From the sequence record OZ335957.1: a stretch of DNA of 40,153 nt. One strand, given 5' to 3'. Position 1 is the first letter of the stretch. Each line of letters opens with the position of its first letter. Positions 3,242 through 40,153 of this stretch are shown here, piece after piece. The notes below the pieces were generated by a model, which saw only the letters and a list, made by a program, of their open reading frames with translations, was not told the origin of the DNA and did no database searches. Made by a program: the position numbers and the translations under genes. Origin of the DNA: a phage.

Positions 3242-3271
3242 TTGACAAGATGTAACGATAAGATGTAATAT
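3242..3271 (+). promoter_or_regulatory. Host sigma70-type early promoter (T7 A3-like)
   Basis: -35 TTGACA (3242-3247), 18-bp spacer, -10 TAATAT (3266-3271); flanking sequence resembles the T7 A2/A3 region (..TTGACAA..GTAA..; downstream GCTCTTTAACAATCTGG). Confidence 0.6.
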
Positions 3272-3449
3272 TTACCACATCGAAACAACGGTGATGACCA
3301 ACACTGAAATGGTCTACCTGAAGTCCTCTGACTGAAGGGAATGCTCTTTAACAATCTGGATAAACTCTTAATGTGCGCCGATAGCGACTAACTACAGGGC
3401 CTTTGAGCCTACATCTGAAGGCCCTGACTGATAGTCACTAACTTAACGG

Positions 3450-3704
3450 ATGGACACTATGAAACACTTAAGCACAATCACTAATCGCAATGAAGTATTC
3501 GTGAACACTAAAGGTTATGCGTGGATTCAGCTTAAAGAGATGAGAGGAGCGCGTCACCGTGTGGTAGTGCGCAAGGTATCAAGCAAGCAGTTCAGCAACT
3601 ACAGCGTCGATACTGTGCGTATAGACAACGAGACATACCTGATAGACTCGCAGATAACCGTGAGTACTACAGCGGGCGTCTCAGCTCCTTATTTCGCTAA
3701 CTGA
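3450..3704 (+). CDS. Hypothetical early protein (84 aa), first ORF after the early promoters
   Basis: ORF in early leader position; weak RBS; alternative start at 3459; no recognisable motif. Confidence 0.4.
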   Translation: MDTMKHLSTITNRNEVFVNTKGYAWIQLKEMRGARHRVVVRKVSSKQFSNYSVDTVRIDNETYLIDSQITVSTTAGVSAPYFAN

Positions 3705-3791
3705 GAGTGATTAACTACAGGTCGTTAGACTGATAGCGGCCTGACTGATAGTCACTAACATACACATAATTAACTTTGAGAGGATATAACT

Positions 3792-4295
3792 ATGGAACGT
3801 AATGCTAACGCATACTATGAGCTGCTGGCTGCAACAGTTGAGGCATTTATCGAGCGTATTCAGTACGACCACCTGACTAAAGATGATGACTACAGCGATG
3901 CGCTGCATGAGGTAGTAGACGGTCAGGTTCCACACTATTACCACGAGATTTTTACGGTGATGGCTGCTGATGGTATAGACCACGAGTTCGAAGACTCTGG
4001 GATGATGCCTGAAACCAAGGACGTAACGCGTATACTACAAGCTCGCATCTATGAGGCGCTTTATAACGATGTGTCTAATAGCTTGGATGTAGTCTGGTTT
4101 GAGGATGAAGAGGCAGACGAAGAGGATGAATATTGGGTAGTTGACGCTAAAACAGGCGCAATAATTGTGCAAGCTGTAGCTCTTGAGGTCGCTACTGCAT
4201 GTGCCAAGGTCAACTATGCAATAGGTCGCCACCTGAAGGTGGAAGACATCAATGATAACGTAGTGTTCGATCCTGCGGCTGAGGACTGCGAGTGA
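3792..4295 (+). CDS. ocr: Ocr-like anti-restriction protein (T7 gp0.3 DNA mimic) with about 50-aa C-terminal extension
   Basis: [43 protein letters not shown] closely matches T7 Ocr; acidic tract DEEADEEDE; RBS GAGAGG. Confidence 0.85.
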
Positions 4296-4444
4296 TGGTA
4301 ACTTATGGTATCTGCCAGCACCACGTCGCCAACGCCCGGCTTATGGTCAAGACCGGGCGGTTAACCCATGATGAGACTATGCGTCTCCTGAAGGTGGTCT
4401 ACAAGCGGCGCAAGCGTATTCACGACAGTTTGCACGCTGAGTGA
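4295..4444 (+). CDS. Hypothetical small early protein (49 aa)
   Basis: ATG overlaps Ocr stop (TGATG); basic C-terminus; below the ORF-track size cutoff. Confidence 0.3.
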   Translation: MVTYGICQHHVANARLMVKTGRLTHDETMRLLKVVYKRRKRIHDSLHAE

Positions 4445-4509
4445 TAAACGAGAGGTCACGACTGATAGGTGGCCTCAAAGATTATCACTTAAATTGATAG
4501 AGGTTAACT

Positions 4510-4599
4510 ATGAGTGTTGGACATTGGGTATGCTTATCTCCGGTCATCTTTCTGATAGCTTGGGGGATATACGACTGTATTAAACGGAAATCACTATGA
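4510..4599 (+). CDS. Hypothetical small hydrophobic peptide (29 aa)
   Basis: ATG after AGAGGT; stop overlaps next start (ATGA); hydrophobic core. Confidence 0.2.
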   Translation: MSVGHWVCLSPVIFLIAWGIYDCIKRKSL

Positions 4600-4793
4600 G
4601 TCTTGCACTATTGATAGCCATAGGCTATGGACTTATCGCATACGTGCTTGTGAGAGACATCAACAAAGCGCGTAAAGTCTACAAATTCAACTATGTACGT
4701 CTGGGCCGCTGGACTGTACGTCAACCTAACGGACGATTCATGCGCAACTTAGCGAACGTCTGGGATATAGCAACTATTGGGAGCAAACTGTAA
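4596..4793 (+). CDS. Hypothetical early membrane protein (65 aa)
   Basis: N-terminal hydrophobic helix LALLIAIGYGLIAYVLV; translationally coupled to flanking ORFs. Confidence 0.45.
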   Translation: MSLALLIAIGYGLIAYVLVRDINKARKVYKFNYVRLGRWTVRQPNGRFMRNLANVWDIATIGSKL

Positions 4794-5058: not shown

Positions 5059-5081
5059 ACTTAACTATCACTATAGGACTC
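5059..5081 (+). promoter_or_regulatory. Phage RNAP promoter immediately upstream of the RNAP gene, +1 G at 5076
   Basis: ACTTAACTATCACTATA GGACTC; 20-mer identical to the copy at 1859. Confidence 0.75.
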
Positions 5082-5150
5082 AAGGTCTAAGACTCCAAGT
5101 GAAAGACCAAAGAGACTTTAAGTGAAAGACTAATAACAAGGACTTTAAGT

Positions 5151-7832
5151 ATGAGCGTCATCTCTATTGATAAACACGACTTCTCTGATGTGTCTAACGC
5201 CATTGAGCCGTTTAACCTGCTGGCTGACCACTACGGGCAAGACCTTGCAGTCAAACAGCTTCAGCTTGAGCATGAGGCCTACACTGAAGGCGAGCGACGT
5301 TTCATCAAGAACCTTGAGCGTCAGACCGAGCGAGGGGAACTGGCAGACAATCAGGTCGCCAAGCCTTTGATGCAGACTCTGGTTCCTAAGATTGCGCAAG
5401 CCGTCAAGGAGTGGCACGAAGGTCCAGACGGGAAGCTGTCAACCTCACGTCCGAGCGTAGCGTTCACCATGTTAAGCACTGAAGAGAAGGCCGTCAAGGA
5501 CCGCTCTCTTCGCATCTCCTGCGAGTCTGCTGCGGTTATCATACTGAAGGTCATCCTCTCCAAGCTGGTCAAGCCTGAAGGTATACCGATTACACCGATG
5601 GCCTCCGCGATAGGTCGCACACTTGAGGATGAAATCCGATTCGGTCGCATTCGTGACAAGGAGAAGGAGCACTTCAAGAAGGCGATAGCTGATAACCTGA
5701 ACAAGAGAGCCGGGGCATCATACAAGAAAGCCTACATGCAAGCGGTCGAGACATCCATGCTGGAGCAAGGCCAACTAGAAGATGCGTGGGGAACTTGGAG
5801 TCCGACCGAGGCTGTCCACGTTGGAATCAAGATGCTGGAGATTGTCATACAGTCAACACAACTGGTCGAGCTTAAGCGTTACGGTGCTGGCAATGCAACG
5901 GCTGACGTTGAGATGGTCCACCTGTCAGACTTCTGGGTCAAGAAGATGGCACAACGCGGCTTCAGCCTTGCGGGTATCGCTCCAGTCTACCAACCTTGCG
6001 TAGTTCCACCTAAGCCGTGGACTGGTGTCGTAGGCGGTGGGTACTGGGCCAAAGGTCGCAGACCATTACCACTGATTCGCTTAGGGTCTAAGTCTGCGGT
6101 GGCACGTTACGAAGACGTGTATATGCCTGAAGTCTATGACGCTGTTAACATCATCCAGAATACACCTTGGAAAGTGAACAAGAAGGTTCTGGACGTGGTG
6201 AACATGGTCGAGAAGTTGAACAACACGCCTATTGATGACATCCCTCAGATGGAGCCACTGAAGCCTGAAGAATATGCGGGTGAGACTGAAGAGGAACTCA
6301 AGGCGTGGAAGAAAGCGGCTGCTGGTATCTATCGCCGCGAGAAGGCCAGACAGTCACGCAGATTGTCGCTGAGCTTTATCGTTAACCAAGCGAACAAGTT
6401 CTCTCAGTTCAAGGCCATCTGGTTCCCGTACAACATGGACTGGCGCGGTCGCGTCTACGCTGTGCCGATGTTCAACCCTCAGGGTAACGACATGCAAAAG
6501 GGTCTACTGACTCTGGCAGTCGGTAAGCCTATTGGTGCTGATGGTTTCAAATGGCTGAAGGTCCACGGTGCAAACTGTGCGGGTGTCGATAAAGTCACCT
6601 TCGAGGAGCGCATCAAGTGGGTGGAAGACAACCACGACAACATCATGGCTGCTGCTAAGGCACCGATGGATAGCATTGAGTGGTGGGGCAAGTTAGACTC
6701 TCCTTTCTGCTTCCTTGCGTTCTGCTTCGAGTATGCTGGCGTGATGCACCACGGATTGTCTTACTCCTGCTCGCTGCCGATAGCTTTCGATGGGTCCTGC
6801 TCTGGGATTCAGCACTTCAGCGCTATGCTTCGTGACCACATCGGTGGACATGCAGTAAACCTGACGCCTTCCGGTAAGGTCCAAGACATCTACCGCATCG
6901 TTTCTGACCGCATTGAGGAAGAGCTTAAAGTCCTGCTGGTTAACGGCACGGACAACGAGATGGTAACTCACGAGGACAAGAAAACTGGTGAGATTACCGA
7001 GCGTCTCAAGCTGGGGACACGAGAGCTGGCCCGTCAGTGGCTGACCTACGGTATGTCACGCAAGGTTACTAAGCGCTCAGTCATGACTCTGGCCTACGGG
7101 TCGAAAGAGTACGGCTTCGCAGACCAAGTTTACGAGGACATCGTGATGCCCGCGATTGACTCAGGGTCTGGCGCTATGTTCACTGAACCAAGCCAAGCAT
7201 CTCGCTTCATGGCTAAGATGATTTGGGAAGCTGTGAGTGTGACCGTAGTTGCTGCGGTTGACGCGATGAAATGGCTTCAGGGTGCTGCCAAGCTGCTGGC
7301 GGCTGAAGTGAAGGACAAGAAGACTGGCGAAATCCTGAAGCCTTGCCTTCCGGTACACTGGGTCACACCTGATGGGTTCCCGGTCTGGCAGGAATACCGC
7401 AAGAAGGATACCACTCGTCTGAATCTGATGTTCTTAGGGTCATTCAACCTTCAGCCTACCGTCAACAAAGGCACGAAGAAAGAGCTGGATAAGCACAAGC
7501 AGGAGTCAGGCATTAGCCCGAACTTCGTCCACTCACAAGATGGTAGCCACCTCCGCAAGACTGTAGTCCACACGCATCGCAAGTATGGCGTGATGTCATT
7601 CGCAGTGATTCATGATAGCTTCGGGACAATCCCGGCTGACGCTGAATATCTGTTCCGTGGTGTCCGTGAGACGATGGTCGAGACCTACCGCGACAACGAT
7701 GTGCTGCTTGACTTCTACGAGCAGTTTGAATACCAGCTTCACGAGAGCCAGCGCAATAAGTTGCCAGAGCTTCCGAAGAAAGGTAAACTGAATATCGAAG
7801 ACATCTTGTCTTCAGACTTTGCATTCGCTTAA
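5151..7832 (+). CDS. 1: Single-subunit DNA-directed RNA polymerase (T7 gp1-like)
   Basis: 893 aa; collinear with T7 RNAP: PFNLLADHYG, CVVPPKPWTG, WFPYNMDWRGRVYAV, FCFLAFCFEY, IHDSFGT, C-terminal FAFA. Confidence 0.98.
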   Translation: MSVISIDKHDFSDVSNAIEPFNLLADHYGQDLAVKQLQLEHEAYTEGERRFIKNLERQTERGELADNQVAKPLMQTLVPKIAQAVKEWHEGPDGKLSTSRPSVAFTMLSTEEKAVKDRSLRISCESAAVIILKVILSKLVKPEGIPITPMASAIGRTLEDEIRFGRIRDKEKEHFKKAIADNLNKRAGASYKKAYMQAVETSMLEQGQLEDAWGTWSPTEAVHVGIKMLEIVIQSTQLVELKRYGAGNATADVEMVHLSDFWVKKMAQRGFSLAGIAPVYQPCVVPPKPWTGVVGGGYWAKGRRPLPLIRLGSKSAVARYEDVYMPEVYDAVNIIQNTPWKVNKKVLDVVNMVEKLNNTPIDDIPQMEPLKPEEYAGETEEELKAWKKAAAGIYRREKARQSRRLSLSFIVNQANKFSQFKAIWFPYNMDWRGRVYAVPMFNPQGNDMQKGLLTLAVGKPIGADGFKWLKVHGANCAGVDKVTFEERIKWVEDNHDNIMAAAKAPMDSIEWWGKLDSPFCFLAFCFEYAGVMHHGLSYSCSLPIAFDGSCSGIQHFSAMLRDHIGGHAVNLTPSGKVQDIYRIVSDRIEEELKVLLVNGTDNEMVTHEDKKTGEITERLKLGTRELARQWLTYGMSRKVTKRSVMTLAYGSKEYGFADQVYEDIVMPAIDSGSGAMFTEPSQASRFMAKMIWEAVSVTVVAAVDAMKWLQGAAKLLAAEVKDKKTGEILKPCLPVHWVTPDGFPVWQEYRKKDTTRLNLMFLGSFNLQPTVNKGTKKELDKHKQESGISPNFVHSQDGSHLRKTVVHTHRKYGVMSFAVIHDSFGTIPADAEYLFRGVRETMVETYRDNDVLLDFYEQFEYQLHESQRNKLPELPKKGKLNIEDILSSDFAFA

Positions 7833-8062: not shown

Positions 8063-8136
8063 CAGACCTACAGTTGCTGGCCTTGTGGCTGGGAGCAATT
8101 GCAGTATTCACTTTAATCCAACGCAGAAGAGGTTAA
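8059..8136 (+). CDS. Hypothetical small hydrophobic peptide (25 aa)
   Basis: ATG overlapping upstream stop; LLALWLGAIAVFTLI helix; stop abuts promoter. Confidence 0.2.
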   Translation: MTDLQLLALWLGAIAVFTLIQRRRG

Positions 8137-8159
8137 CCTAAACTATCACTATAGGATTA
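8137..8159 (+). promoter_or_regulatory. Phage RNAP promoter (phi1.1-like position), +1 G at 8154
   Basis: CCTAAACTATCACTATA GGATTA. Confidence 0.8.
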
Positions 8160-8200
8160 GACTCAAGGTCATGACTCAAAGTCGTGGCCTTCATGATTAA
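8158..8200 (+). promoter_or_regulatory. Conserved hairpin element, copy 1 (RNase III site-like, R1.1 position)
   Basis: TAGACTCAAGGTCAT..GTGGCCTTCATGATTA; stem AAGGTCA/TGGCCTT conserved in three copies (8158, 15524, 39611). Confidence 0.4.
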
Positions 8201-8232
8201 CCCTAAATAAACACTACTGGAGATTTAACCGT

Positions 8233-8416: not shown

Positions 8417-8680
8417 ATGGGCCGACTTTATAGTGGCAACCTCAACGCTTTCAGAGCAGCGTGTAACAGGCTTTATCAGTTAGACTTCGCTGTTATATCT
8501 CAGGAGTTTCAAGACCATGTGTCACACCAAGAGTGCATGAAACTCAGGGTGGAGGACAGAACTGGTAACATCTTCGCGCTTGAGTCCTTCGCACACTACG
8601 ATGACGACGTGCTGTATAATACTGCAACCGACTACCTCAACGGTCTCGCTGACCAACTAGACACATGGAGCAAAGCATAA
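8417..8680 (+). CDS. 1.2: gp1.2-like protein (host dGTPase inhibitor in T7)
   Basis: MGRLYSGNLNAFRAACNRLYQLDFAVI...LRVEDRTGN matches T7 gp1.2 N-terminus. Confidence 0.85.
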   Translation: MGRLYSGNLNAFRAACNRLYQLDFAVISQEFQDHVSHQECMKLRVEDRTGNIFALESFAHYDDDVLYNTATDYLNGLADQLDTWSKA

Positions 8681-9720
8681 TGACAACTATCAAAACTAAC
8701 CCGCACCGCGCTGTAGATTACTCTGAGTCTGGCATTAAGAAGGCACTGGAAGCAGCCGGGTCTCTGGAAGCTGAAGTGAAGTACGATGGTGTCCGGCTGA
8801 ACCTTCCGGTGCTGCGAGAAGGTGAGACATACTGGTTAAGCCGTGAGTCTAAACCGCTGCCAGCACTGGAGTGGATGAACTCTGAGTTAGGGAATGCGTG
8901 GACTCAAGCTGACTGGCGATGGTTCCTGCGTCAAGCTGGATACGAAGGCGTGGGACTGATGATTGACGGAGAGGTAATGGTCAAAGGCGTTGACTTCAAC
9001 ACATCATCGGGTCTCATCCGAACGAAGTGGCTGAAGCCTAGCAACGAGGAGTTCGCTGAATGCTATCCGGGACGTGGCAAGAAGGTCCCGTTCTGGGTCG
9101 CCCGGTCACGACTCAAGGTTGTGGTCTACGGTGTCGTCGACATGACGACCATAGCCGACCCGAAAGCAGAAGGTCCTATCCATAGCGTCACACGCCTGAA
9201 GGCCGAAGCTATCGTACCTCTCCTCCAGAAATACTTCCCGGAAATCGACTGGGTTCTGTCTGAGTCACACACGGTCTATGACCTTGAGTCGCTCAACTCC
9301 CTGTACGAACAGAAGCGTCTGGAAGGACATGAGGGTCTGGTGGTCAAGGACCCACTTGGAAAATACAAGCGCGGCAAGAAGTCAGGCATGTGGAAAATGA
9401 AGCCTGAGGAGACAATTGACGGGACCGTGTGTGGACTCGTGTGGGGGACTCCGGGTAAGGCTAACGAAGGTAAGATCATCGGCTTTGAGGTTCTACTGGA
9501 AGATGGCATGGTGGTTAACGCCTGTGGTCTGACTGAGAAGCAGAAGGACGAGTTCACGGAAGCCTGTAACACTGACACATATATCCTTGGTGGTGTCAAT
9601 CCTTACGAGGGCTGGCAGGTTGAAGTCCTCTACATGGAGCGATTCCCTGACGGCTCACTGCGTCACCCTAGCTTCAAGTGCTGGCGCGGGACGGAAGATA
9701 ACCCGACCATTAAGAGCTAA
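8680..9720 (+). CDS. 1.3: ATP-dependent DNA ligase (T7 gp1.3-like); alternative upstream start at 8665
   Basis: MTTIKTNP N-terminus as in T7 ligase; adenylation motif KYDGVR; TAATG coupling at 8680. Confidence 0.92.
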   Translation: MTTIKTNPHRAVDYSESGIKKALEAAGSLEAEVKYDGVRLNLPVLREGETYWLSRESKPLPALEWMNSELGNAWTQADWRWFLRQAGYEGVGLMIDGEVMVKGVDFNTSSGLIRTKWLKPSNEEFAECYPGRGKKVPFWVARSRLKVVVYGVVDMTTIADPKAEGPIHSVTRLKAEAIVPLLQKYFPEIDWVLSESHTVYDLESLNSLYEQKRLEGHEGLVVKDPLGKYKRGKKSGMWKMKPEETIDGTVCGLVWGTPGKANEGKIIGFEVLLEDGMVVNACGLTEKQKDEFTEACNTDTYILGGVNPYEGWQVEVLYMERFPDGSLRHPSFKCWRGTEDNPTIKS

Positions 9721-9731
9721 CTAAATGTCAA

Positions 9732-9768
9732 CCCAGTGGTCTTAGGACTGCTGGGTTTCTTTGCTTTG
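9732..9768 (+). terminator. Intrinsic terminator after ligase gene (T7 TE-like position)
   Basis: 10-bp stem CCCAGTGGTC/GACTGCTGGG (two G-U pairs), loop TTAG, followed by TTTCTTTGCTTTG. Confidence 0.5.
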
Positions 9769-13137: not shown

Positions 13138-13353
13138 ATGATTAAACTTATCGAATTTCTAGGTCGTCTGGTGGTGCGTGGTTATCGTCGTGCTGCGGTA
13201 CTGGAACGAAAGGTAGAAAAGAAGACTGCTGATGGCGCGGCTGATGCGGCTGCTCTGGCTGACAAGCTAACCATCGCGTCACTGGAAGCTGGCATGAAGG
13301 CTCGTCAGGCTGATACCAAAGCTGACCAGTTGGCTCAGTTCTTCAAAGACTAA
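13138..13353 (+). CDS. Hypothetical protein (71 aa)
   Basis: RBS AAAGGAG; Ala-rich helical sequence. Confidence 0.5.
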   Translation: MIKLIEFLGRLVVRGYRRAAVLERKVEKKTADGAADAAALADKLTIASLEAGMKARQADTKADQLAQFFKD

Positions 13354-13391
13354 ACTATCACCTTAGGGATGGGACCATGAGTCCTGTCCCT
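13349..13391 (+). promoter_or_regulatory. Degenerate promoter-like sequence overlapping an 11-bp-stem hairpin (R3.8-like)
   Basis: ACTAAACTATCACCTTAGGG (CTTA replaces TATA at -4..-1); hairpin AGGGATGGGAC-CATGA-GTCCTGTCCCT at 13365-13391. Confidence 0.35.
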
Positions 13392-13421
13392 TTGTTCGCA
13401 TTTGTGACTAAGGAGTGACCG

Positions 13422-13608: not shown

Positions 13609-15312
<1,704 letters not shown>

Positions 15313-15355
15313 TCGGGACATCGCTGACTATAAGAATTTTTACGGAGGACCGTTA

Positions 15356-15520
15356 GTGTTAAAGAAACTTAAAGCTCGATATCACATGTTCATGTACAAA
15401 TGGTGGAGCGATGAAGCAACCTGCCTGTCGAACATTCTGGGAGACCAGCGGTTCAACTCTGAGGCATGGAAGAAAGCTAACCGGAAGTTCATGTATCACT
15501 TCTTGCGTACAGACTTCTAG
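15356..15520 (+). CDS. Hypothetical small protein (54 aa, GTG start)
   Basis: GGAGG 7 nt upstream of GTG; 3' part of ORF-track frame 15041..15520 lying downstream of primase stop. Confidence 0.3.
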   Translation: MLKKLKARYHMFMYKWWSDEATCLSNILGDQRFNSEAWKKANRKFMYHFLRTDF

Positions 15521-15523
15521 GTC

Positions 15524-15566
15524 TAGACTCAAGGTCATTCATAGCGAGTGGCCTTTATGATTAGAC
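15524..15566 (+). promoter_or_regulatory. Conserved hairpin element, copy 2 (RNase III site-like, R4.7 position)
   Basis: TAGACTCAAGGTCATTCATAGCGAGTGGCCTTTATGATTAGACT. Confidence 0.4.
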
Positions 15567-15584
15567 TAAAGCGGAGGATTAACC

Positions 15585-17756
15585 ATGTTTGACCTTAAGA
15601 GTATCTGGGGTTCTGACATCGAGACCAACGGTCTCCTTGATACAGTCTCCCAGTTTCACTGTGGGGTCCTGATTAACGCCGAGTCGAATGAGACCCTTAA
15701 GTATGGGGTAGCTCCGATGGTCGGTATCGTCGGCGGCTTCAAAGAGTATGTTCATAAAGTGGAAGAGATTGCAGCATCACCTGATGGTATGCTGGTATTC
15801 CATAACGGTATCAACTATGACGTCCCGGCTATAGACAAGCTGAAGCGTTTGTACTTTGGGAAACGCTTTAACTTCCCGAAACATAAGATGATTGATACCT
15901 TGGTGCTGGGACGCTTGATGTATCCAAACATTAAGTTCTCAGACATGGGCGCAGTGAAAGCTGGTCGTCTGCCACCTAAGATGATGGGACGCCAGTCTCT
16001 TGAGGCTTGGGGCTATCGTCTCGGTGAGATGAAAGGTGAGTACAAACACGATTACGTTGCCAAGTGCAAGGCTGAAGGTATCGAATATAAGGCTGGGGAC
16101 GAATGGTTGTTCCCGTCTCAGGAGATGCTGGACTATAACGTTCAAGACGTTGTGGTCACACTGGCGTTGTTCAAGAAGTTCCTGACTGACAAGTATTACT
16201 TCCAGTCTGAACAGTTCGCTTTCGACCAGATTTATGCGTTGCGTCTGGAACATGATGCTGCGTGGACCTGTGCGAAGATGGAGCGTAACGGCTATCCGAT
16301 GAACACCGAGATGGTCGAAGGCTTATATCGTGAACTCACTGTCAAACGTGCAGAGTTGCTGGACAAGCTGCGTTCGACTTTCGGTAGCTGGTACGCACCA
16401 AAGGGAGGCAAGGAGTTCTTCAGGCATCCACGGACAGGTAAGGACCTTCCGAAGTATCCGAGGGTCGTGTATCCTAAGGTCGGTGGCATCTTTAAGAAGC
16501 CGAAGAACAAAGCTCAACGCTTAGGTCTTGAACCTTGTGAACGCGATACGCGAGACACGATGGAAGGAGCACCATTCACGCCAATCACTTACGTTGAGTT
16601 TAATCCGGGAAGCGGAGACCACTTAGCGAAAGTCCTGATGGAGCGTGGCTGGGAGCCTGTTGACTTCACTGACACCGGGAAACCTGTAGTCGATGACGAG
16701 ACGTTGGAACACGTTAAGTTACCAGACGCAGAGGCTCAGGCTTGTGTAGAGCTGGTCCGTGAGTATCTGGTAGTCCAGAAGCGCATCGGGCAGGCTGCTG
16801 AAGGTAAGAACGCATGGTTGAAACTTGTAGGTCCAGACGGACGTATGCACGGTTCAATCAACCCTTGTGGAGCAGTAACCGGACGTGCGACCCATAGTTC
16901 ACCAAACATGGCTCAGGTCCCGGCTAACGGTGCTCCATACGGTGAGACTTGCCGTGGTGCTTTCGGTGCAGCGTGGAACAAGAAGGACGGTAAGCCAGAC
17001 CCTTGGATTCAAGTAGGTGTGGACGCTTCAGGTCTTGAGCTTCGTTGTCTGGGGAACCGAGCGGCTCCGTTTGATGGTGGAGACTATGCGAAGACTGTGG
17101 TCGAAGGGGACATCCACTGGGCCAACGCAGTAAACGCTGGGTTAGCACCTAACGTCCCACGCGATAAGTCGAACCATGACCATGATGCTTTCCGTAACAA
17201 CGCTAAGACGTTCATCTATGCGTTCCTGTATGGTGCAGGGGCCGCTAAGATTGGACTGATAGTTGGCGGTGGTAAGAAGGAAGGTGCTACCCTGATGAAG
17301 AAATTCATTGAGGGTACACCAGCTATTAAAGACCTCAGGGAAGCTGTGAGTAATACGTTAATCTCCGAATCCAAATGGGTAGATGGAGAGAACATCGTGA
17401 AGTGGAAACGTCGCTGGCTGAAAGGTCTGGATGGTCGCCGTATCCACATCCGGTCTCCACACTCAGCACTAAACGCATTACTTCAAGGCGATGGTGCGGT
17501 TGTCTGTAAGCACTGGATTGTAGAGACTGAACGTATGCTTGAAGAGGCAGGGTATGTTCACGGCTGGGAGGGAGACTTCGCGTACATGGCCTGGGTTCAC
17601 GACGAATTGCAGATTGCGTGCCGTACTCAGGAGATTGCCGAAGAAGTCGTCAAGATTGCTCAACTTGCTATGCGTAAGGTGGGTGAGTTCTATAACTTTA
17701 AATGTGTCCTTGATACCGAAGGTAAGATTGGACCAACGTGGAAGGAGTGCCATTGA
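15585..17756 (+). CDS. 5: DNA polymerase (T7 gp5-like, family A) with 3'-5' exonuclease domain
   Basis: 723 aa; SDIETNGL (exo I), FHNG.NYDVPA, GSWY.PKGG, KTFIYAFLYGAG (motif B), WVHDELQ (motif C) collinear with T7 gp5. Confidence 0.98.
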   Translation: MFDLKSIWGSDIETNGLLDTVSQFHCGVLINAESNETLKYGVAPMVGIVGGFKEYVHKVEEIAASPDGMLVFHNGINYDVPAIDKLKRLYFGKRFNFPKHKMIDTLVLGRLMYPNIKFSDMGAVKAGRLPPKMMGRQSLEAWGYRLGEMKGEYKHDYVAKCKAEGIEYKAGDEWLFPSQEMLDYNVQDVVVTLALFKKFLTDKYYFQSEQFAFDQIYALRLEHDAAWTCAKMERNGYPMNTEMVEGLYRELTVKRAELLDKLRSTFGSWYAPKGGKEFFRHPRTGKDLPKYPRVVYPKVGGIFKKPKNKAQRLGLEPCERDTRDTMEGAPFTPITYVEFNPGSGDHLAKVLMERGWEPVDFTDTGKPVVDDETLEHVKLPDAEAQACVELVREYLVVQKRIGQAAEGKNAWLKLVGPDGRMHGSINPCGAVTGRATHSSPNMAQVPANGAPYGETCRGAFGAAWNKKDGKPDPWIQVGVDASGLELRCLGNRAAPFDGGDYAKTVVEGDIHWANAVNAGLAPNVPRDKSNHDHDAFRNNAKTFIYAFLYGAGAAKIGLIVGGGKKEGATLMKKFIEGTPAIKDLREAVSNTLISESKWVDGENIVKWKRRWLKGLDGRRIHIRSPHSALNALLQGDGAVVCKHWIVETERMLEEAGYVHGWEGDFAYMAWVHDELQIACRTQEIAEEVVKIAQLAMRKVGEFYNFKCVLDTEGKIGPTWKECH

Positions 17757-19798: not shown

Positions 19799-19850
19799 GT
19801 CTAACCGATAGTCATATCCTATCAATCCAACAGTCATCCATAGGTAAAAT

Positions 19851-19873
19851 ACTAAACTATCACTATAGGGACT
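19851..19873 (+). promoter_or_regulatory. Phage RNAP promoter (phi6.5-like), +1 G at 19868
   Basis: ACTAAACTATCACTATA GGGACT. Confidence 0.8.
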
Positions 19874-19934
19874 TTAGGACCTAAGATATGACTATAAGAT
19901 AGACTTTAGTCTTAACTTAAAGAGGAGATTCAAG

Positions 19935-21125: not shown

Positions 21126-22694
21126 ATGGCTGAACGTGAAGGGTTCGCTGCTGAAGGAGCCAAAGCGGTCTATGACCGACTGAAGAACGGTAGACAGCCA
21201 TATGAGACACGCGCTCAGAATTGTGCTGCTGTCACTATCCCGTCACTGTTTCCTAAGGAGTCCGACAACTCGTCTACTGAGTACACCACTCCGTGGCAAG
21301 CTGTAGGTGCTCGATGTTTGAACAACTTGGCTGCAAAGCTGATGTTGGCATTATTCCCTCAGTCACCGTGGATGCGACTTACAGTCTCCGAATATGAGGC
21401 TAAGACCTTGAGTCAGGACTCAGAGGCTGCTGCTCGTGTGGACGAGGGGCTTGCTATGGTCGAGCGTGTGTTGATGGCCTACATGGAGACAAACAGTTTC
21501 CGTGTGCCATTGTTCGAAGCTCTGAAGCAGCTTATAGTCTCCGGTAACTGTCTGCTCTACATTCCAGAGCCTGAACAGGGAACCTACAGTCCTATGCGAA
21601 TGTACCGCTTAGTGTCCTACGTTGTTCAACGTGATGCTTTCGGTAACATCTTACAGATTGTGACTCTCGACAAGGTAGCGTTTAGTGCTCTACCGGAAGA
21701 CGTGAAGTCTCAACTCAACGCAGACGACTATGAGCCTGACACCGAGCTGGAAGTGTATACGCACATCTACCGTCAGGACGACGAGTATCTGCGCTACGAG
21801 GAAGTGGAAGGCATTGAGGTAGCAGGGACCGATGGTTCTTACCCACTGACTGCCTGTCCATACATCCCGGTACGAATGGTTCGACTGGACGGTGAAGACT
21901 ATGGTCGCTCTTATTGCGAGGAGTATCTGGGAGACCTGAACTCGCTGGAGACGATTACAGAAGCTATCACCAAAATGGCTAAGGTAGCCTCCAAAGTGGT
22001 GGGCCTCGTTAACCCGAATGGTATCACGCAACCTCGTCGTCTGAATAAGGCGGCTACAGGTGAGTTCGTGGCTGGACGCGTTGAGGACATCAACTTCCTG
22101 CAACTGACGAAAGGTCAGGACTTTACGATTGCTAAATCGGTGGCTGACGCTATCGAGCAACGTCTAGGTTGGGCCTTCCTTCTTAATAGTGCTGTTCAGC
22201 GTAATGCCGAGCGAGTCACTGCCGAAGAGATTCGTTATGTTGCTGGCGAACTGGAGGCGACCTTAGGTGGCGTGTACTCAGTACAGTCACAAGAGCTTCA
22301 GTTACCTATCGTACGTGTGCTGATGAACCAACTTCAGTCTGCTGGCATGATTCCTGACCTTCCGAAAGAAGCGGTAGAGCCTACTGTCTCAACTGGTCTG
22401 GAAGCTCTGGGCCGTGGTCAGGACTTGGAGAAGCTGACTCAGGCGGTTAACATGATGACTGGTCTTCAGCCGCTATCTCAGGACCCGGACATCAATTTGC
22501 CGACCCTTAAGCTGCGACTCCTGAACGCTCTGGGTATCGACACCGCTGGCCTACTCCTGACGCAAGACGAGAAGATTCAGCGCATGGCTGAGCAGTCGTC
22601 TCAACAGGCAGTTGTCCAAGGTGCTAGTGCTGCTGGTGCTAACATGGGTGCTGCTGTAGGTCAGGGAGCTGGTGAGGACATGGCTCAAGCCTAA
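21126..22694 (+). CDS. 8: Portal (head-tail connector) protein (T7 gp8-like)
   Basis: 522 aa; PYETRAQNCA..IPSLFPKESDNSSTEYTTPWQAVGAR nearly identical in pattern to T7 gp8 N-terminus. Confidence 0.97.
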   Translation: MAEREGFAAEGAKAVYDRLKNGRQPYETRAQNCAAVTIPSLFPKESDNSSTEYTTPWQAVGARCLNNLAAKLMLALFPQSPWMRLTVSEYEAKTLSQDSEAAARVDEGLAMVERVLMAYMETNSFRVPLFEALKQLIVSGNCLLYIPEPEQGTYSPMRMYRLVSYVVQRDAFGNILQIVTLDKVAFSALPEDVKSQLNADDYEPDTELEVYTHIYRQDDEYLRYEEVEGIEVAGTDGSYPLTACPYIPVRMVRLDGEDYGRSYCEEYLGDLNSLETITEAITKMAKVASKVVGLVNPNGITQPRRLNKAATGEFVAGRVEDINFLQLTKGQDFTIAKSVADAIEQRLGWAFLLNSAVQRNAERVTAEEIRYVAGELEATLGGVYSVQSQELQLPIVRVLMNQLQSAGMIPDLPKEAVEPTVSTGLEALGRGQDLEKLTQAVNMMTGLQPLSQDPDINLPTLKLRLLNALGIDTAGLLLTQDEKIQRMAEQSSQQAVVQGASAAGANMGAAVGQGAGEDMAQA

Positions 22695-22802: not shown

Positions 22803-23687
22803 ATGTCTCAATCAGTTTATGCCGAGTTCGGCGTTAGCTCTAATGCAATCACTGGTTCCGTTGAGGACCTGAACGAACATCAGAAGTCTATGCTTGAACA
22901 GGACGTAGCTGTTCGTGATGGCGATGACGCTATTACCTTCAAGCAACTGGAAGCCGAAAACGAAGAGGAGACCGAAGAAGACGAGAACGTCGAAGAGACT
23001 GAGGGTACTGAAGACAACGAGTCAGATGACGAAGAGTCTGAGACAGATGGTGAGCAACCTGAGTTCGTAGAACTTGGTGATGCACCGAAAGAGCTGACCG
23101 AAAGTGTCACCGCTCTGGATGAAAACGAAGCTGCATTCGACGACATGGTGTCTTCTGCTGTGGAAGCTGGCAAGGTCACTGCTGATGAAATTACCGCTAT
23201 CAAGGCTGAATACGCCAAGGACGGTAAGCTGTCTGACGCATCCTACGCTAAGTTGCAGGAAGCAGGTTACACCAAGCGTTTCGTAGATTCGTTTGTTCGC
23301 GGTCAGGAAGCTCTGGCTGAACAGTACGCTGCTGGTGTGGTTCGCTACGCAGGTGGCGCTGACCAGTTTAATCGCATCCTGTCACACCTTGAGTCAAACG
23401 ACCCGTCAACTCGTGAAGCACTTGAAGCTGCTATCGTTCGTAAGGACATTGCGACTACCAAAGCTCTGCTGAATCTGGCTGGCAAGACTCTGGGTAAAGC
23501 TGTTGGCGTTAAACCTCAGCGTACCATCACCACTCAGGCTAAACCTGTGGTCGCACCTAAGGCTCCTCAGACCGAAGCATTCAGCTCCAAGGCTGACATG
23601 ATTAAGGCTATGAGTGACCCGCGATACCTGCGTGACGATAAGTACACGATGGAAGTTCGCGCTAAGGTAGCTGCCTCAAGCCTGTAG
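22803..23687 (+). CDS. 9: Capsid assembly (scaffolding) protein (T7 gp9-like)
   Basis: Highly acidic; VYAEFGV, RDGDDAI, GYTKRFVDSFVRGQEALAEQY, MIKAMSDPRY match T7 gp9; start at internal ATG with AAAGGAG RBS. Confidence 0.9.
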   Translation: MSQSVYAEFGVSSNAITGSVEDLNEHQKSMLEQDVAVRDGDDAITFKQLEAENEEETEEDENVEETEGTEDNESDDEESETDGEQPEFVELGDAPKELTESVTALDENEAAFDDMVSSAVEAGKVTADEITAIKAEYAKDGKLSDASYAKLQEAGYTKRFVDSFVRGQEALAEQYAAGVVRYAGGADQFNRILSHLESNDPSTREALEAAIVRKDIATTKALLNLAGKTLGKAVGVKPQRTITTQAKPVVAPKAPQTEAFSSKADMIKAMSDPRYLRDDKYTMEVRAKVAASSL

Positions 23688-23688
23688 G

Positions 23689-23711
23689 ACTAAACTATCA
23701 CTATAGGGAGA
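23689..23711 (+). promoter_or_regulatory. Phage RNAP promoter (phi10-like, best consensus match), +1 G at 23706
   Basis: ACTAAACTATCACTATA GGGAGA; immediately upstream of capsid gene. Confidence 0.85.
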
Positions 23712-23814
23712 CCAAGAGACAGACTCAAGGTTTCCCCTATTACTTCAGTCCATACGGATTGGGCGTACAGTAAGTAATAAACTTTATCTTTCAATTGAAT
23801 AGGAGAATTATCAT

Positions 23815-25133: not shown

Positions 25134-25170
25134 CCCCTTGGGTGCCTTCGGGTGCTTGAGGGGTTTTTTG
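25134..25170 (+). terminator. Intrinsic terminator for phage RNAP (T7 Tphi-like)
   Basis: CCCCTTGGGTGCCTTCGGGTGCTTGAGGGG hairpin followed by TTTTTT; close to T7 Tphi (AACCCCTTGGGGCCTCTAAACGGGTCTTGAGGGGTTTTTTG). Confidence 0.9.
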
Positions 25171-28452: not shown

Positions 28453-28476
28453 CTTATTGAAGGGCCTATAGATTTA

Positions 28477-28499
28477 CCTTAACTATCACTATAGGGACT
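28477..28499 (+). promoter_or_regulatory. Phage RNAP promoter (phi13-like), +1 G at 28494, bracketed by an 11-bp perfect inverted repeat
   Basis: CCTTAACTATCACTATA GGGACT; AGGGCCTATAG (28461-28471) / CTATAGGCCCT (28497-28507). Confidence 0.8.
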
Positions 28500-28528
28500 A
28501 TAGGCCCTTAAGGTTATAAGGAGACTTT

Positions 28529-39151: not shown

Positions 39152-39346
39152 ATGATTGAGTTAGACTTCAAGAATGAGGTCCTTAAAGCCTCTCCTATAG
39201 TCGGGACCGCTGCGGCTGATGGTGCCAGTCGGTTCTTCTTCGGACTCACACTTAACGAATGGTTCTACGTTGCAGCTATCGCGTACACCGTTGTCCAGAT
39301 TGGTGTGCTAGTCTACAAAACGATTAAAGGAGGTGGTAAAACATGA
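39152..39346 (+). CDS. 17.5: Holin (T7 gp17.5-like)
   Basis: 64 aa; LNEWFYVAAIAYTVVQIG transmembrane segment nearly identical to T7 gp17.5. Confidence 0.85.
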   Translation: MIELDFKNEVLKASPIVGTAAADGASRFFFGLTLNEWFYVAAIAYTVVQIGVLVYKTIKGGGKT

Positions 39347-39606
39347 CGCAGATGGACTTAGAGAAGTTCCTCTTGATGCTAGATACTGAACGTGCTCGAC
39401 TCATGCTGCAAGACCTGCGGGATGACACTAAGCGTTCACCTCAGCTTTACAACGCCATTGAGAAGCTACTGGCTCGTCACAACTTCGTGCTAAGCAAGGT
39501 GTCTGTAGACGAGAAGACTCTGGCTGATATGGAGGCCCTGAACGCAGAGTACGATAAGGTTCTTTCAGCGACTGAGGATAATGACACAGGGTATGGTGTT
39601 CAATAA
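39343..39606 (+). CDS. 18: Terminase small subunit (T7 gp18-like)
   Basis: 87 aa; LLMLDTERARLMLQDL...RSPQLYNAIEKLLARH matches T7 gp18. Confidence 0.88.
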   Translation: MTQMDLEKFLLMLDTERARLMLQDLRDDTKRSPQLYNAIEKLLARHNFVLSKVSVDEKTLADMEALNAEYDKVLSATEDNDTGYGVQ

Positions 39607-39610
39607 GTGT

Positions 39611-39655
39611 TAGACTCAAGGTCATTACTATATGTAGTGGCCTTTATGGTTAACA
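39611..39655 (+). promoter_or_regulatory. Conserved hairpin element, copy 3 (RNase III site-like, R18.5 position)
   Basis: TAGACTCAAGGTCATTACTATATGTAGTGGCCTTTATGGTTAAC. Confidence 0.4.
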
Positions 39656-39707
39656 CTAACTAGTGGAGGAGACTCTACGTGAAATCTGATAAACCGGGAG
39701 GGCAACT

Positions 39708-40153
39708 ATGCTCGAATTTTTAAAGAGAGCGGCTCCGTGGTTACTTGCAGCAGTGATGTTTGCTGGTGGCTACCACACCGCTAACAATAAGTGGGAGGCT
39801 AAGGTCAATGAAGAATACACCTCGAATCTTAAGGCATCGGAAGATACAAGGCTTGCTGTCCAAGCTGAAGTCAACAAAGTGTCCAAACGGTTTCAGGACG
39901 AAATGTCCTCGCTGGAAGGCAGCACTGATAGGATTATTGCTGACCTTCAGTCTGACAATAAGCGGCTGCGCATCCGAGTCAAACCAACGAGTGGAACCAC
40001 GCAAAGTGACGGTCGATGCGTCATTGATGGTTACGCCGAACTTGACGAACGAGATGCTAAACGTCTTATCGCCATCGGAGTGAAAGGAGACAAGTGGATT
40101 AAGGCCCTTCAGGACACTGTGAGAGCCTTGCAGCAAGATAAGGAGGTGACGCA
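39708..40153 (+). CDS. 18.5: i-spanin (Rz-like, T7 gp18.5-like), 3' end truncated by window edge
   Basis: MLEFLKRAAPWLLAAVMFAGG N-terminal TM; EGSTDRIIADLQSDNKRLRIRVK and DERDAKRLIA match T7 gp18.5; GGGAGGG RBS. Confidence 0.85.
   Translation, partial: MLEFLKRAAPWLLAAVMFAGGYHTANNKWEAKVNEEYTSNLKASEDTRLAVQAEVNKVSKRFQDEMSSLEGSTDRIIADLQSDNKRLRIRVKPTSGTTQSDGRCVIDGYAELDERDAKRLIAIGVKGDKWIKALQDTVRALQQDKEVT
39808..40083 (+). CDS. 18.7: o-spanin (Rz1-like lipoprotein, T7 gp18.7-like) nested in +1 frame inside i-spanin gene
   Basis: Lipobox LTISGC; PRWKAALIGLLL and SLMVTPNLTNEMLNV match T7 gp18.7; GGGAGG RBS. Confidence 0.8.
   Translation: MKNTPRILRHRKIQGLLSKLKSTKCPNGFRTKCPRWKAALIGLLLTFSLTISGCASESNQRVEPRKVTVDASLMVTPNLTNEMLNVLSPSE

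Follow-up and report, generated by a model that had tools for sequence, protein, structure and literature searches.

Six hairpins in a K1F-like phage genome are probable RNase III processing signals of the T7 type

Six hairpins in the genome of a K1F-like phage are, when read as RNA on the + strand, very probably RNase III processing signals of the type known from phage T7. The window, by which we mean the whole 40,153-nucleotide (nt) stretch of sequence record OZ335957.1 that was analyzed, is the genome of a Kayfunavirus (K1F-like) in permuted form, with its start inside gene 19. The first 25 kb share 93-97% identity with K1F-like coliphages (genus Kayfunavirus, Studiervirinae), and gene identities were assigned from a list of open reading frames (ORFs), the K1F record, and PHROG profiles. 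Our interpretation is built on homology to proven T7 sites, on the fold, covariation, and strand specificity of the elements, and on their intergenic position and synteny. Cleavage itself, the exact phosphodiester that is cut, and the effects on RNA stability and translation would follow from this homology.

A first-pass annotation of the window had described a recurring element at 8158, 15524, and 39611, and both of its arms are indeed exact at all three places, far above chance. The left arm, the 15-mer TAGACTCAAGGTCAT, occurs in exact form on the + strand at these three positions and nowhere else (~0.07 expected). With two or fewer mismatches allowed, there are four matches to TAGACTCAAGGTCAT where 0.08 are expected, and as many were seen in 0 of 100 shuffles. 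The right arm, GTGGCCTTYATGRTTA, has exactly three copies (8184, 15548, and 39637; 0.06 expected), and the sequence between the arms differs among them, as expected of what had been called a variable loop. The 7-bp stem AAGGTCA/TGGCCTT on which the annotation had focused is conserved, but it is merely the base of an upper stem of 10-12 bp and not the full stem. The gene context is as had been claimed: one copy follows the promoter in the RNA polymerase region, one precedes the DNA polymerase gene, and one occupies the gap between the small terminase and spanin genes. Likewise, the proposed match to T7 sites R1.1, R4.7, and R18.5 is borne out, since sequence, fold architecture, and synteny all agree.

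Folding of each copy, which the annotation had put forward as a check, yielded a T7-like two-helix structure in all three cases. Sites 1-3 share a common plan, in which a 4/5-nt internal loop (ACUC/YAUGR) separates upper and lower stems of 10-12 and 7-9 bp, respectively; the lower stems vary in sequence among the sites and keep their complementarity. Site 1, at the R1.1 position (8151-8207, + strand; 47.4 bits, E = 1.1e-9 with the covariance model described below), lies 3' of the RNA polymerase gene (gene 1, 5151-7832) and 5' of gene 1.2, which encodes the dGTPase inhibitor gp1.2 (8417-8680). It starts at the +1 of a phage RNA polymerase promoter whose core, TAAACTATCACTATAGG, spans 8139-8155 on the + strand, the +1 G (8154) falling within the lower stem. 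In this hairpin, positions 8152-8160 pair with 8197-8205 to form the lower stem, positions 8165-8176 pair with 8180-8191 to form the upper stem, and ACUC (8161-8164) stands opposite CAUGA (8192-8196), with a fold energy of -20.2 kcal/mol (z = -4.38). Site 2, at the R4.7 position (15517-15570, + strand; 47.7 bits, E = 9.5e-10), ends 15 nt 5' of the start codon of gene 5, the DNA polymerase gene (15585-17756). Its lower stem joins 15520-15526 to 15561-15567 and its upper stem 15531-15540 to 15546-15555, around an internal loop of ACUC (15527-15530) opposite UAUGA (15556-15560); the fold energy is -21.4 kcal/mol (z = -2.59). Site 3, at the R18.5 position (39604-39660, + strand; 55.2 bits, E = 9.6e-12), starts at the stop codon of gene 18, which encodes the small terminase (39343-39606), and lies 48 nt 5' of gene 18.5, an Rz-like spanin gene identified by PHROG that extends from an ATG at 39708. 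Here, the lower stem is formed by 39605-39613 with 39650-39657, the upper stem by 39618-39628 with 39634-39644, and the internal loop by ACUC (39614-39617) opposite UAUGG (39645-39649), for a fold energy of -23.4 kcal/mol (z = -4.22).

The count of three copies was accurate as far as it went, but three more copies of the same class in the early region had been overlooked. The first of these, a CAGG/CCUG variant at 3381-3442 (+ strand; 35.1 bits, E = 2.1e-6), lies 5' of a gp0.2-like ORF (3450-3704), folds with -26.5 kcal/mol (z = -4.12), and has orthologous matches in K1F, SH4, and GA2A. The second, at 3704-3759 (+ strand; 41.6 bits, E = 4e-8), is the positional equivalent of T7 R0.3; it is located directly 5' of the ocr-like gene 0.3 (3792-4295, PHROG) and has a fold energy of -23.9 kcal/mol (z = -4.51). 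The third, at 4438-4492 (+ strand; 35.7 bits, E = 1.5e-6), is the positional equivalent of T7 R0.5 and falls between gene 0.35 and an ORF at 4596-4793, with a fold energy of -24.3 kcal/mol (z = -4.89). A strong sigma-70-like promoter (TTGACA-18-TAATAT, 3242-3271) is found just 5' of the first early site.

The six sites were identified with a covariance model that was trained on T7 R0.3, R0.5, R1, R1.1, R1.3, R4.7, and R18.5 only, using an RNAalifold consensus structure, and that was run over the whole window with filters off. The model returned six matches of 35-55 bits, all of them on the + strand and all intergenic, and the next-best score in the window, which we treat as the background ceiling, was 16.6 bits. 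On the opposite strand, the true sites reached only 10-15 bits owing to G-U pairs in the RNA structure, and this strand bias is evidence against a DNA-level palindrome. For the three copies that the annotation had already read as T7 RNase III sites, the T7-trained model lends clear support (47-55 bits, E of about 1e-9 to 1e-11), and we infer their cleavage by homology. When checked against phiYeO3-12, the same model recovered 8 of the 10 stem-loops annotated as "putative RNase III site" at matching coordinates, and it also recovered T7 R6.5, which was outside the training set. In K1F there are six matches, orthologous to the six sites of the window; elsewhere, SH4 and GA2A have 5-6 matches, and a Pektosvirus has 3. 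The R1, R1.3, and R6.5 positions of the window gave no covariance-model match, and for this reason the processing map differs from that of T7. A scan of the whole window against Rfam returned no family at or above the gathering threshold.

RNase III processes both early and late transcripts of T7, with cleavage of just one phosphodiester in R1.1 (PMC4858673, PMC6121014). Signals of the T7 type are cut once owing to their internal loop, which restricts cleavage to one bond and leaves a protective 3' hairpin (PMC1540722). Furthermore, R0.5 and R1.1 can be used as portable processing sites (PMC3643576), and R4.7 and R18.5 are strong sites (bioRxiv 10.1101/106799). The elements in the window resemble the T7 sites in sharing the consensus core ACUCAAGGUC...GGCCUUUAUGAUU, in being intergenic and on the transcribed strand, and in their synteny with R0.3, R0.5, R1.1, R4.7, and R18.5; in addition, T7 R0.5, R1.1, R4.7, and R18.5 have the same two-helix fold with a 4/5-nt internal loop when folded identically. 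The likeness is especially close for site 2, which shares 37 of 40 nt (92.5%; BLAST, T7 1434-1473) with T7 R0.5 (TAGACTCAAGGTCGCTCCTAGCGAGTGGCCTTTATGATTA), and whose ten upper-stem pairs (AAGGUCAUUC/GAGUGGCCUU) and internal loop (ACUC/UAUGA) are identical to those of T7 R1.1. All of the internal-loop variants in sites 1-3 are known from cleaved T7 sites, with UAUGA occurring in R1.1 and R0.5, the C of site 1 in R4.7, and the G of site 3 in R18.5. Judged by this agreement with cleaved variants, the internal loop and its adjoining pairs (the proximal-box region) are compatible with cleavage.

The T7 cleavage coordinates that served as our reference (Dunn & Studier 1983) we take to be 890, 1468, 3138, 5887, 6448, 11203, 13892, 18563, 27281, and 36856. 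These values are supported in that seven of them land on one position of the motif CCTTTA-T-GAT in the T7 sequence. The feature tables of the T7 RefSeq and V01146 records list no RNase III sites, and the GenBank records of K1F, SH4, and GA2A carry no RNase III-site annotation. A full-text literature search, outside of which the K1F genome paper fell, returned nothing relevant that links K1F or Studiervirinae to RNase III sites.

The window also departs from T7 in several respects. There are eight canonical sites in T7 as opposed to six in the window, and sites 1-3 of the window, with their exact 15-nt and 16-nt arms, are far more alike than the T7 copies are mutually. While T7 R1.1 starts ~15 nt and is cut ~39 nt 3' of the phi1.1A start, site 1 begins at the promoter +1. 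Unlike T7, the window lacks the gene 0.7 kinase, a conclusion that we draw because the ORF list contains no ORF longer than 167 amino acids (aa) between 1764 and 5151, and it has a phage promoter directly before gene 1. The gene 0.7 kinase of T7 is a stimulator of RNase III, and the fact that this phage group has no such gene counts against our reading. The closest layout is found in phiYeO3-12 (AJ251805), a T3-like Yersinia phage. There, R1.1 starts at the promoter +1, the promoter at 6321-6343 overlapping a stem-loop at 6340-6391 just as the promoter and site 1 do in the window; R4.7 is immediately followed by gene 5, and gene 18 immediately by R18.5. The T7-trained model gives these sites 46-62 bits. 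A feature of this genome labeled "putative RNase III site R0.45" underlies one of the BLAST matches of site 2. Yet phiYeO3-12 belongs to another genus (Teetrevirus) and differs in having R1, R1.3, and a canonical R6.5, and its sites are predictions, too. Cellular and lambda substrates (rRNA operon stems, the lambda N leader, and sib) are recognized by the same enzyme and likewise present about two turns of double-stranded RNA, but they are mostly fully paired, are cut on both strands, and are unrelated in sequence.

Among close relatives, the three repeated sites are retained almost without exception. With gene 18 as the anchor, all 23 relatives had site 3; with gene 5, site 2 was present at 22 of 23 loci, and with gene 1.2, site 1 was present at 10 of 11. 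Compensatory changes were seen in these close relative sets in the distal upper stem and the lower stem; for site 3 they fall in the distal upper stem, and for site 2 five pairs had changed on both sides. Covariation across wider alignments supports both helices. In an alignment of 70 sites from diverse viral contigs, which was fitted to and selected by the covariance model so that pairing is inflated, 93.6% of cells were paired compared to 74.6% in shuffles, pairing fell to 28-48% when the partner was slid, and 16 of 19 pairs had changed on both sides. Because that alignment favors pairing, we added an alignment made by MAFFT independently of structure, which comprised the 6 sites of the window and 10 known sites, and here 94.1% of cells were paired, compared to 74.3%, with 13 of 19 pairs covarying.

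Beyond the genus, the 54-nt sequence of site 2 has BLAST matches in 403 phage records that include enterobacterial and vibrio T7-like phages, and across genera its 40-nt core shows higher conservation than the flanks do. In contrast to the close relatives, 12 distant gene 18 relatives (51-56% identity) gave no model match at E <= 0.01, and the element is thus not universal among gene 18-bearing podophages. We also observed that, in five relatives (loci L049, L054, L055, L057, and L061), homology to the window begins at 15524, precisely the left edge of site 2. Two others (L051 and L052, 70-507) carry a 145-aa ORF, with an HNH-like motif recognized by eye, inserted between site 2 and gene 5, and in one relative (L021, 1464-1946) the gap from the stop codon of gene 18 to site 3 contains an inserted 160-aa ORF. 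Within the window, a 49-aa ORF (15411-15560) overlaps both the end of the ORF at 15041-15520 and the site 2 hairpin; it corresponds to gp4.4 of K1F (AM084414, 12743-12892), and a "hypothetical protein" coding sequence is drawn over the hairpin in several records among the site 2 BLAST matches listed. Most likely, an RNA element has been miscalled here as a coding sequence, gp4.4 in K1F included.

If the elements act as their T7 counterparts do, each of them would fold within a polycistronic phage transcript into two coaxial helices around an asymmetric internal loop, with 10-12 bp in the upper stem, which begins AAGGUC.../...GGCCUU, 7-9 bp in the lower stem, and ACUC facing YAUGR between them. 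RNase III of the host (Escherichia coli) would bind this helix of roughly two turns and, because of the internal loop, would cut one phosphodiester only, on the 3' side of the loop. The cuts, of the form CCUUYAU^G, are predicted to fall at U8194/G8195 in site 1, U15558/G15559 in site 2, and U39647/G39648 in site 3, positions that were placed by alignment with the T7 sites. The upstream RNA would keep a 3'-terminal hairpin that may shield it against 3'-to-5' exonucleases. The downstream RNA, meanwhile, would start with a short leader in which the following gene (1.15/1.2, 5, or 18.5) has its ribosome-binding site; the leaders are expected to measure 38 nt for gene 1.15, 26 nt for gene 5, and 60 nt for gene 18.5. 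Three or four of the canonical sites would be contained in the early transcript made by the host polymerase, with the others in transcripts made by the phage polymerase.

An argument can be made that the hairpins remain uncut and control RNA stability or translation, either by blocking exonucleases or RNase E or by hiding or exposing a downstream ribosome-binding site, such that RNase III is uninvolved. The hairpins are stable and lie just 5' of Shine-Dalgarno sequences, and their cleavage in this phage is predicted from homology. Nevertheless, the parts that are conserved are the internal loop and its adjoining pairs, which are identical to those of T7 R1.1 and R0.5 and include the phosphodiester that has been cut experimentally, and a plain stability hairpin would have no need of an asymmetric loop whose sequence is conserved across genera. 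We therefore consider an uncut role very unlikely. There is even less to be said for transcription terminators or pause signals that act on the host or the phage polymerase, which we regard as having next to no likelihood even though the elements are G+C-containing intergenic hairpins on the transcribed strand. None of the six sites has a T-run after the hairpin, where YAUGRUUA follows instead, and none was matched in a terminator scan that does detect a TE-like terminator 3' of the ligase gene (9730-9757; a 12-bp stem and a T-run) and a Tphi-like terminator 3' of the capsid gene (25145-25162). With neither a U-run nor a terminator-scan match at any of the six sites, the intrinsic-terminator reading was rejected; moreover, the near-identical elements of T7 are processing sites, not terminators.

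It is also conceivable that the elements function as DNA, in which case they would be conserved linkers that promote recombination or module exchange among T7-like phages, or remnants of small mobile repeats. Some observations point in this direction, including the breakpoints and insertions at the edges of the elements in relatives, among them the five alignments that begin at 15524, the ORFs inserted just after site 2 and just before site 3, and a 40-nt core that outlasts its flanks across genera. However, all six copies are on the transcribed strand, with the opposite strand held to 10-15 bits owing to G-U pairs, and compensatory changes preserve pairing in the RNA. Furthermore, in compact genomes insertions are to be expected in intergenic gaps anyway. 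A DNA-level function thus strikes us as extremely improbable, and recombination or module exchange would be at most a secondary consequence and not the primary function. RNase III processing of the transcript remains the reading that we favor.

The promoter core that overlaps site 1 is itself a recurrent feature of the window. The 17-mer TAAACTATCACTATAGG has 11 near-consensus copies (0-2 mismatches) on the + strand where 0.02 are expected, and a twelfth match with 3 mismatches is located inside gene 17. One consensus promoter (5061) sits directly 5' of the RNA polymerase gene, a place taken by R1 in T7 and phiYeO3-12; the leader that follows (5061-5150) contains the left-arm motif only, along with repeated GACTTTAAG/AAGTGAAAGAC units, and its folding is not better than that of shuffles.

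Three other hairpins are linked to promoters in the manner of the noncanonical T7 sites R3.8, R6.5, and R13, which start at or enclose a phage promoter. These candidates are outside the reported repeat family and have a weaker status, and only the R3.8-like one shows sequence homology. It is a 5' hairpin at 13365-13400 (+ strand), right after the promoter at 13351, which we propose with lower confidence (fold z = -2.31). The 15-mer CCCTTTGTTCGCATT that lies 3' of it is identical in T7 R3.8 and one base off in R3.8 of phiYeO3-12, and the hairpin has no match with the canonical covariance model. The R13-like candidate, also held with lower confidence, is found at 28460-28509 (+ strand), where a 12-bp stem (AAGGGCCUAUAG/CUAUAGGCCCUU) surrounds the promoter at 28479 (z = -3.01); R13 of T7 and phiYeO3-12 overlaps promoter phi13, and the resemblance is one of arrangement only, as the sequences are not homologous. 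In the remaining case, an 11-bp stem at 19808-19897 encloses the promoter at 19853.

The first-pass annotation had also placed a shorter motif, GACTCAAGGT, after promoters at 5076 and 23706. The motif is present, at 5077 and 23722, but position 23706 is the end of the promoter. Its implied role as a further RNase III hairpin did not hold up, as the regions after the promoters at 5061 and 23691 gave no covariance-model match. As a degenerate RNase III site, the copy at 5077 was rejected, being without a right arm and in a segment (5075-5150) that folds with z = -0.17 versus shuffles. The copy at 23722 was likewise rejected, for it falls in a leader hairpin of the phi10 type (GGGAGACC/GGUUUCCC), where it is part of the loop and 3' arm. 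That hairpin, GGGAGACC...GGUUUCCC at 23706-23736, forms the 5' leader of the capsid-gene transcript and is, in its form, a homolog of the phi10 leader of T7; another strong hairpin comes after it (z = -3.84 for 23704-23790).

As the left-arm 10-mer, GACTCAAGGT has 10 occurrences in the window, whereas an order-2 Markov model predicts 0.22; no 10-mer is more frequent, and the promoter core equals it. Seven copies are outside the hairpins: three on the + strand (5077, 9110, and 23722) and four on the - strand (2722-2731, 9281-9290, 21405-21414, and 23386-23395), of which three are within genes 1.3, 8, and 9 and one is in the noncoding left-end region. K1F, SH4, and GA2A have a similar surplus of the motif, mostly at orthologous places, but T7, phiYeO3-12, and a Pektosvirus do not. 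In the ligase gene, the antisense copy is an island of 10/10 identity between two 78%-identical haplotypes whose flanks differ at ~40%. Even so, it is unlikely that GACTCAAGGT has a second sequence-specific role in Kayfunavirus genomes that is independent of local hairpins. If it does, the motif could be a protein-binding DNA site or, as ACCUUGAGUC in mRNA, could pair with the hairpin arms at long range or in trans. With regard to long-range pairing between sense and antisense 10-mers, the 9110/9281 pair is not conserved, since K1F, SH4, and GA2A lack the sense copy, and the 23386/23722 pair amounts to just 10 bp. A separate repeat, ACCTACAGT, has 10 copies on the + strand and 1 on the - strand. 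Five form a short-repeat array in the noncoding left end (2469-2818), a position that matches that of the T7 repeat arrays adjoining the terminal repeat, and the others are at 8066, 9970, 12393, 21582, and 26232; the pattern recurs in K1F, SH4, and GA2A, whereas T7 and phiYeO3-12 lack it.

Since the 1970s it has been known that RNase III processes the transcripts of the T7 group, and its sites there are conserved throughout the subfamily. The hairpins described here are new, unannotated members of this well-known class of RNA processing signals. For general biology, our findings are of little consequence, and they concern an ordinary and already understood feature of this phage group. Their value is for annotation, given that the elements are missing from the K1F, SH4, and GA2A records and from Rfam. 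The T7-trained model separates true sites cleanly from background, and it provides a processing map for K1F-like phages, a group with members in use for phage therapy and engineering, with none of the canonical sites at the R1, R1.3, and R6.5 positions and six elsewhere in the genome.
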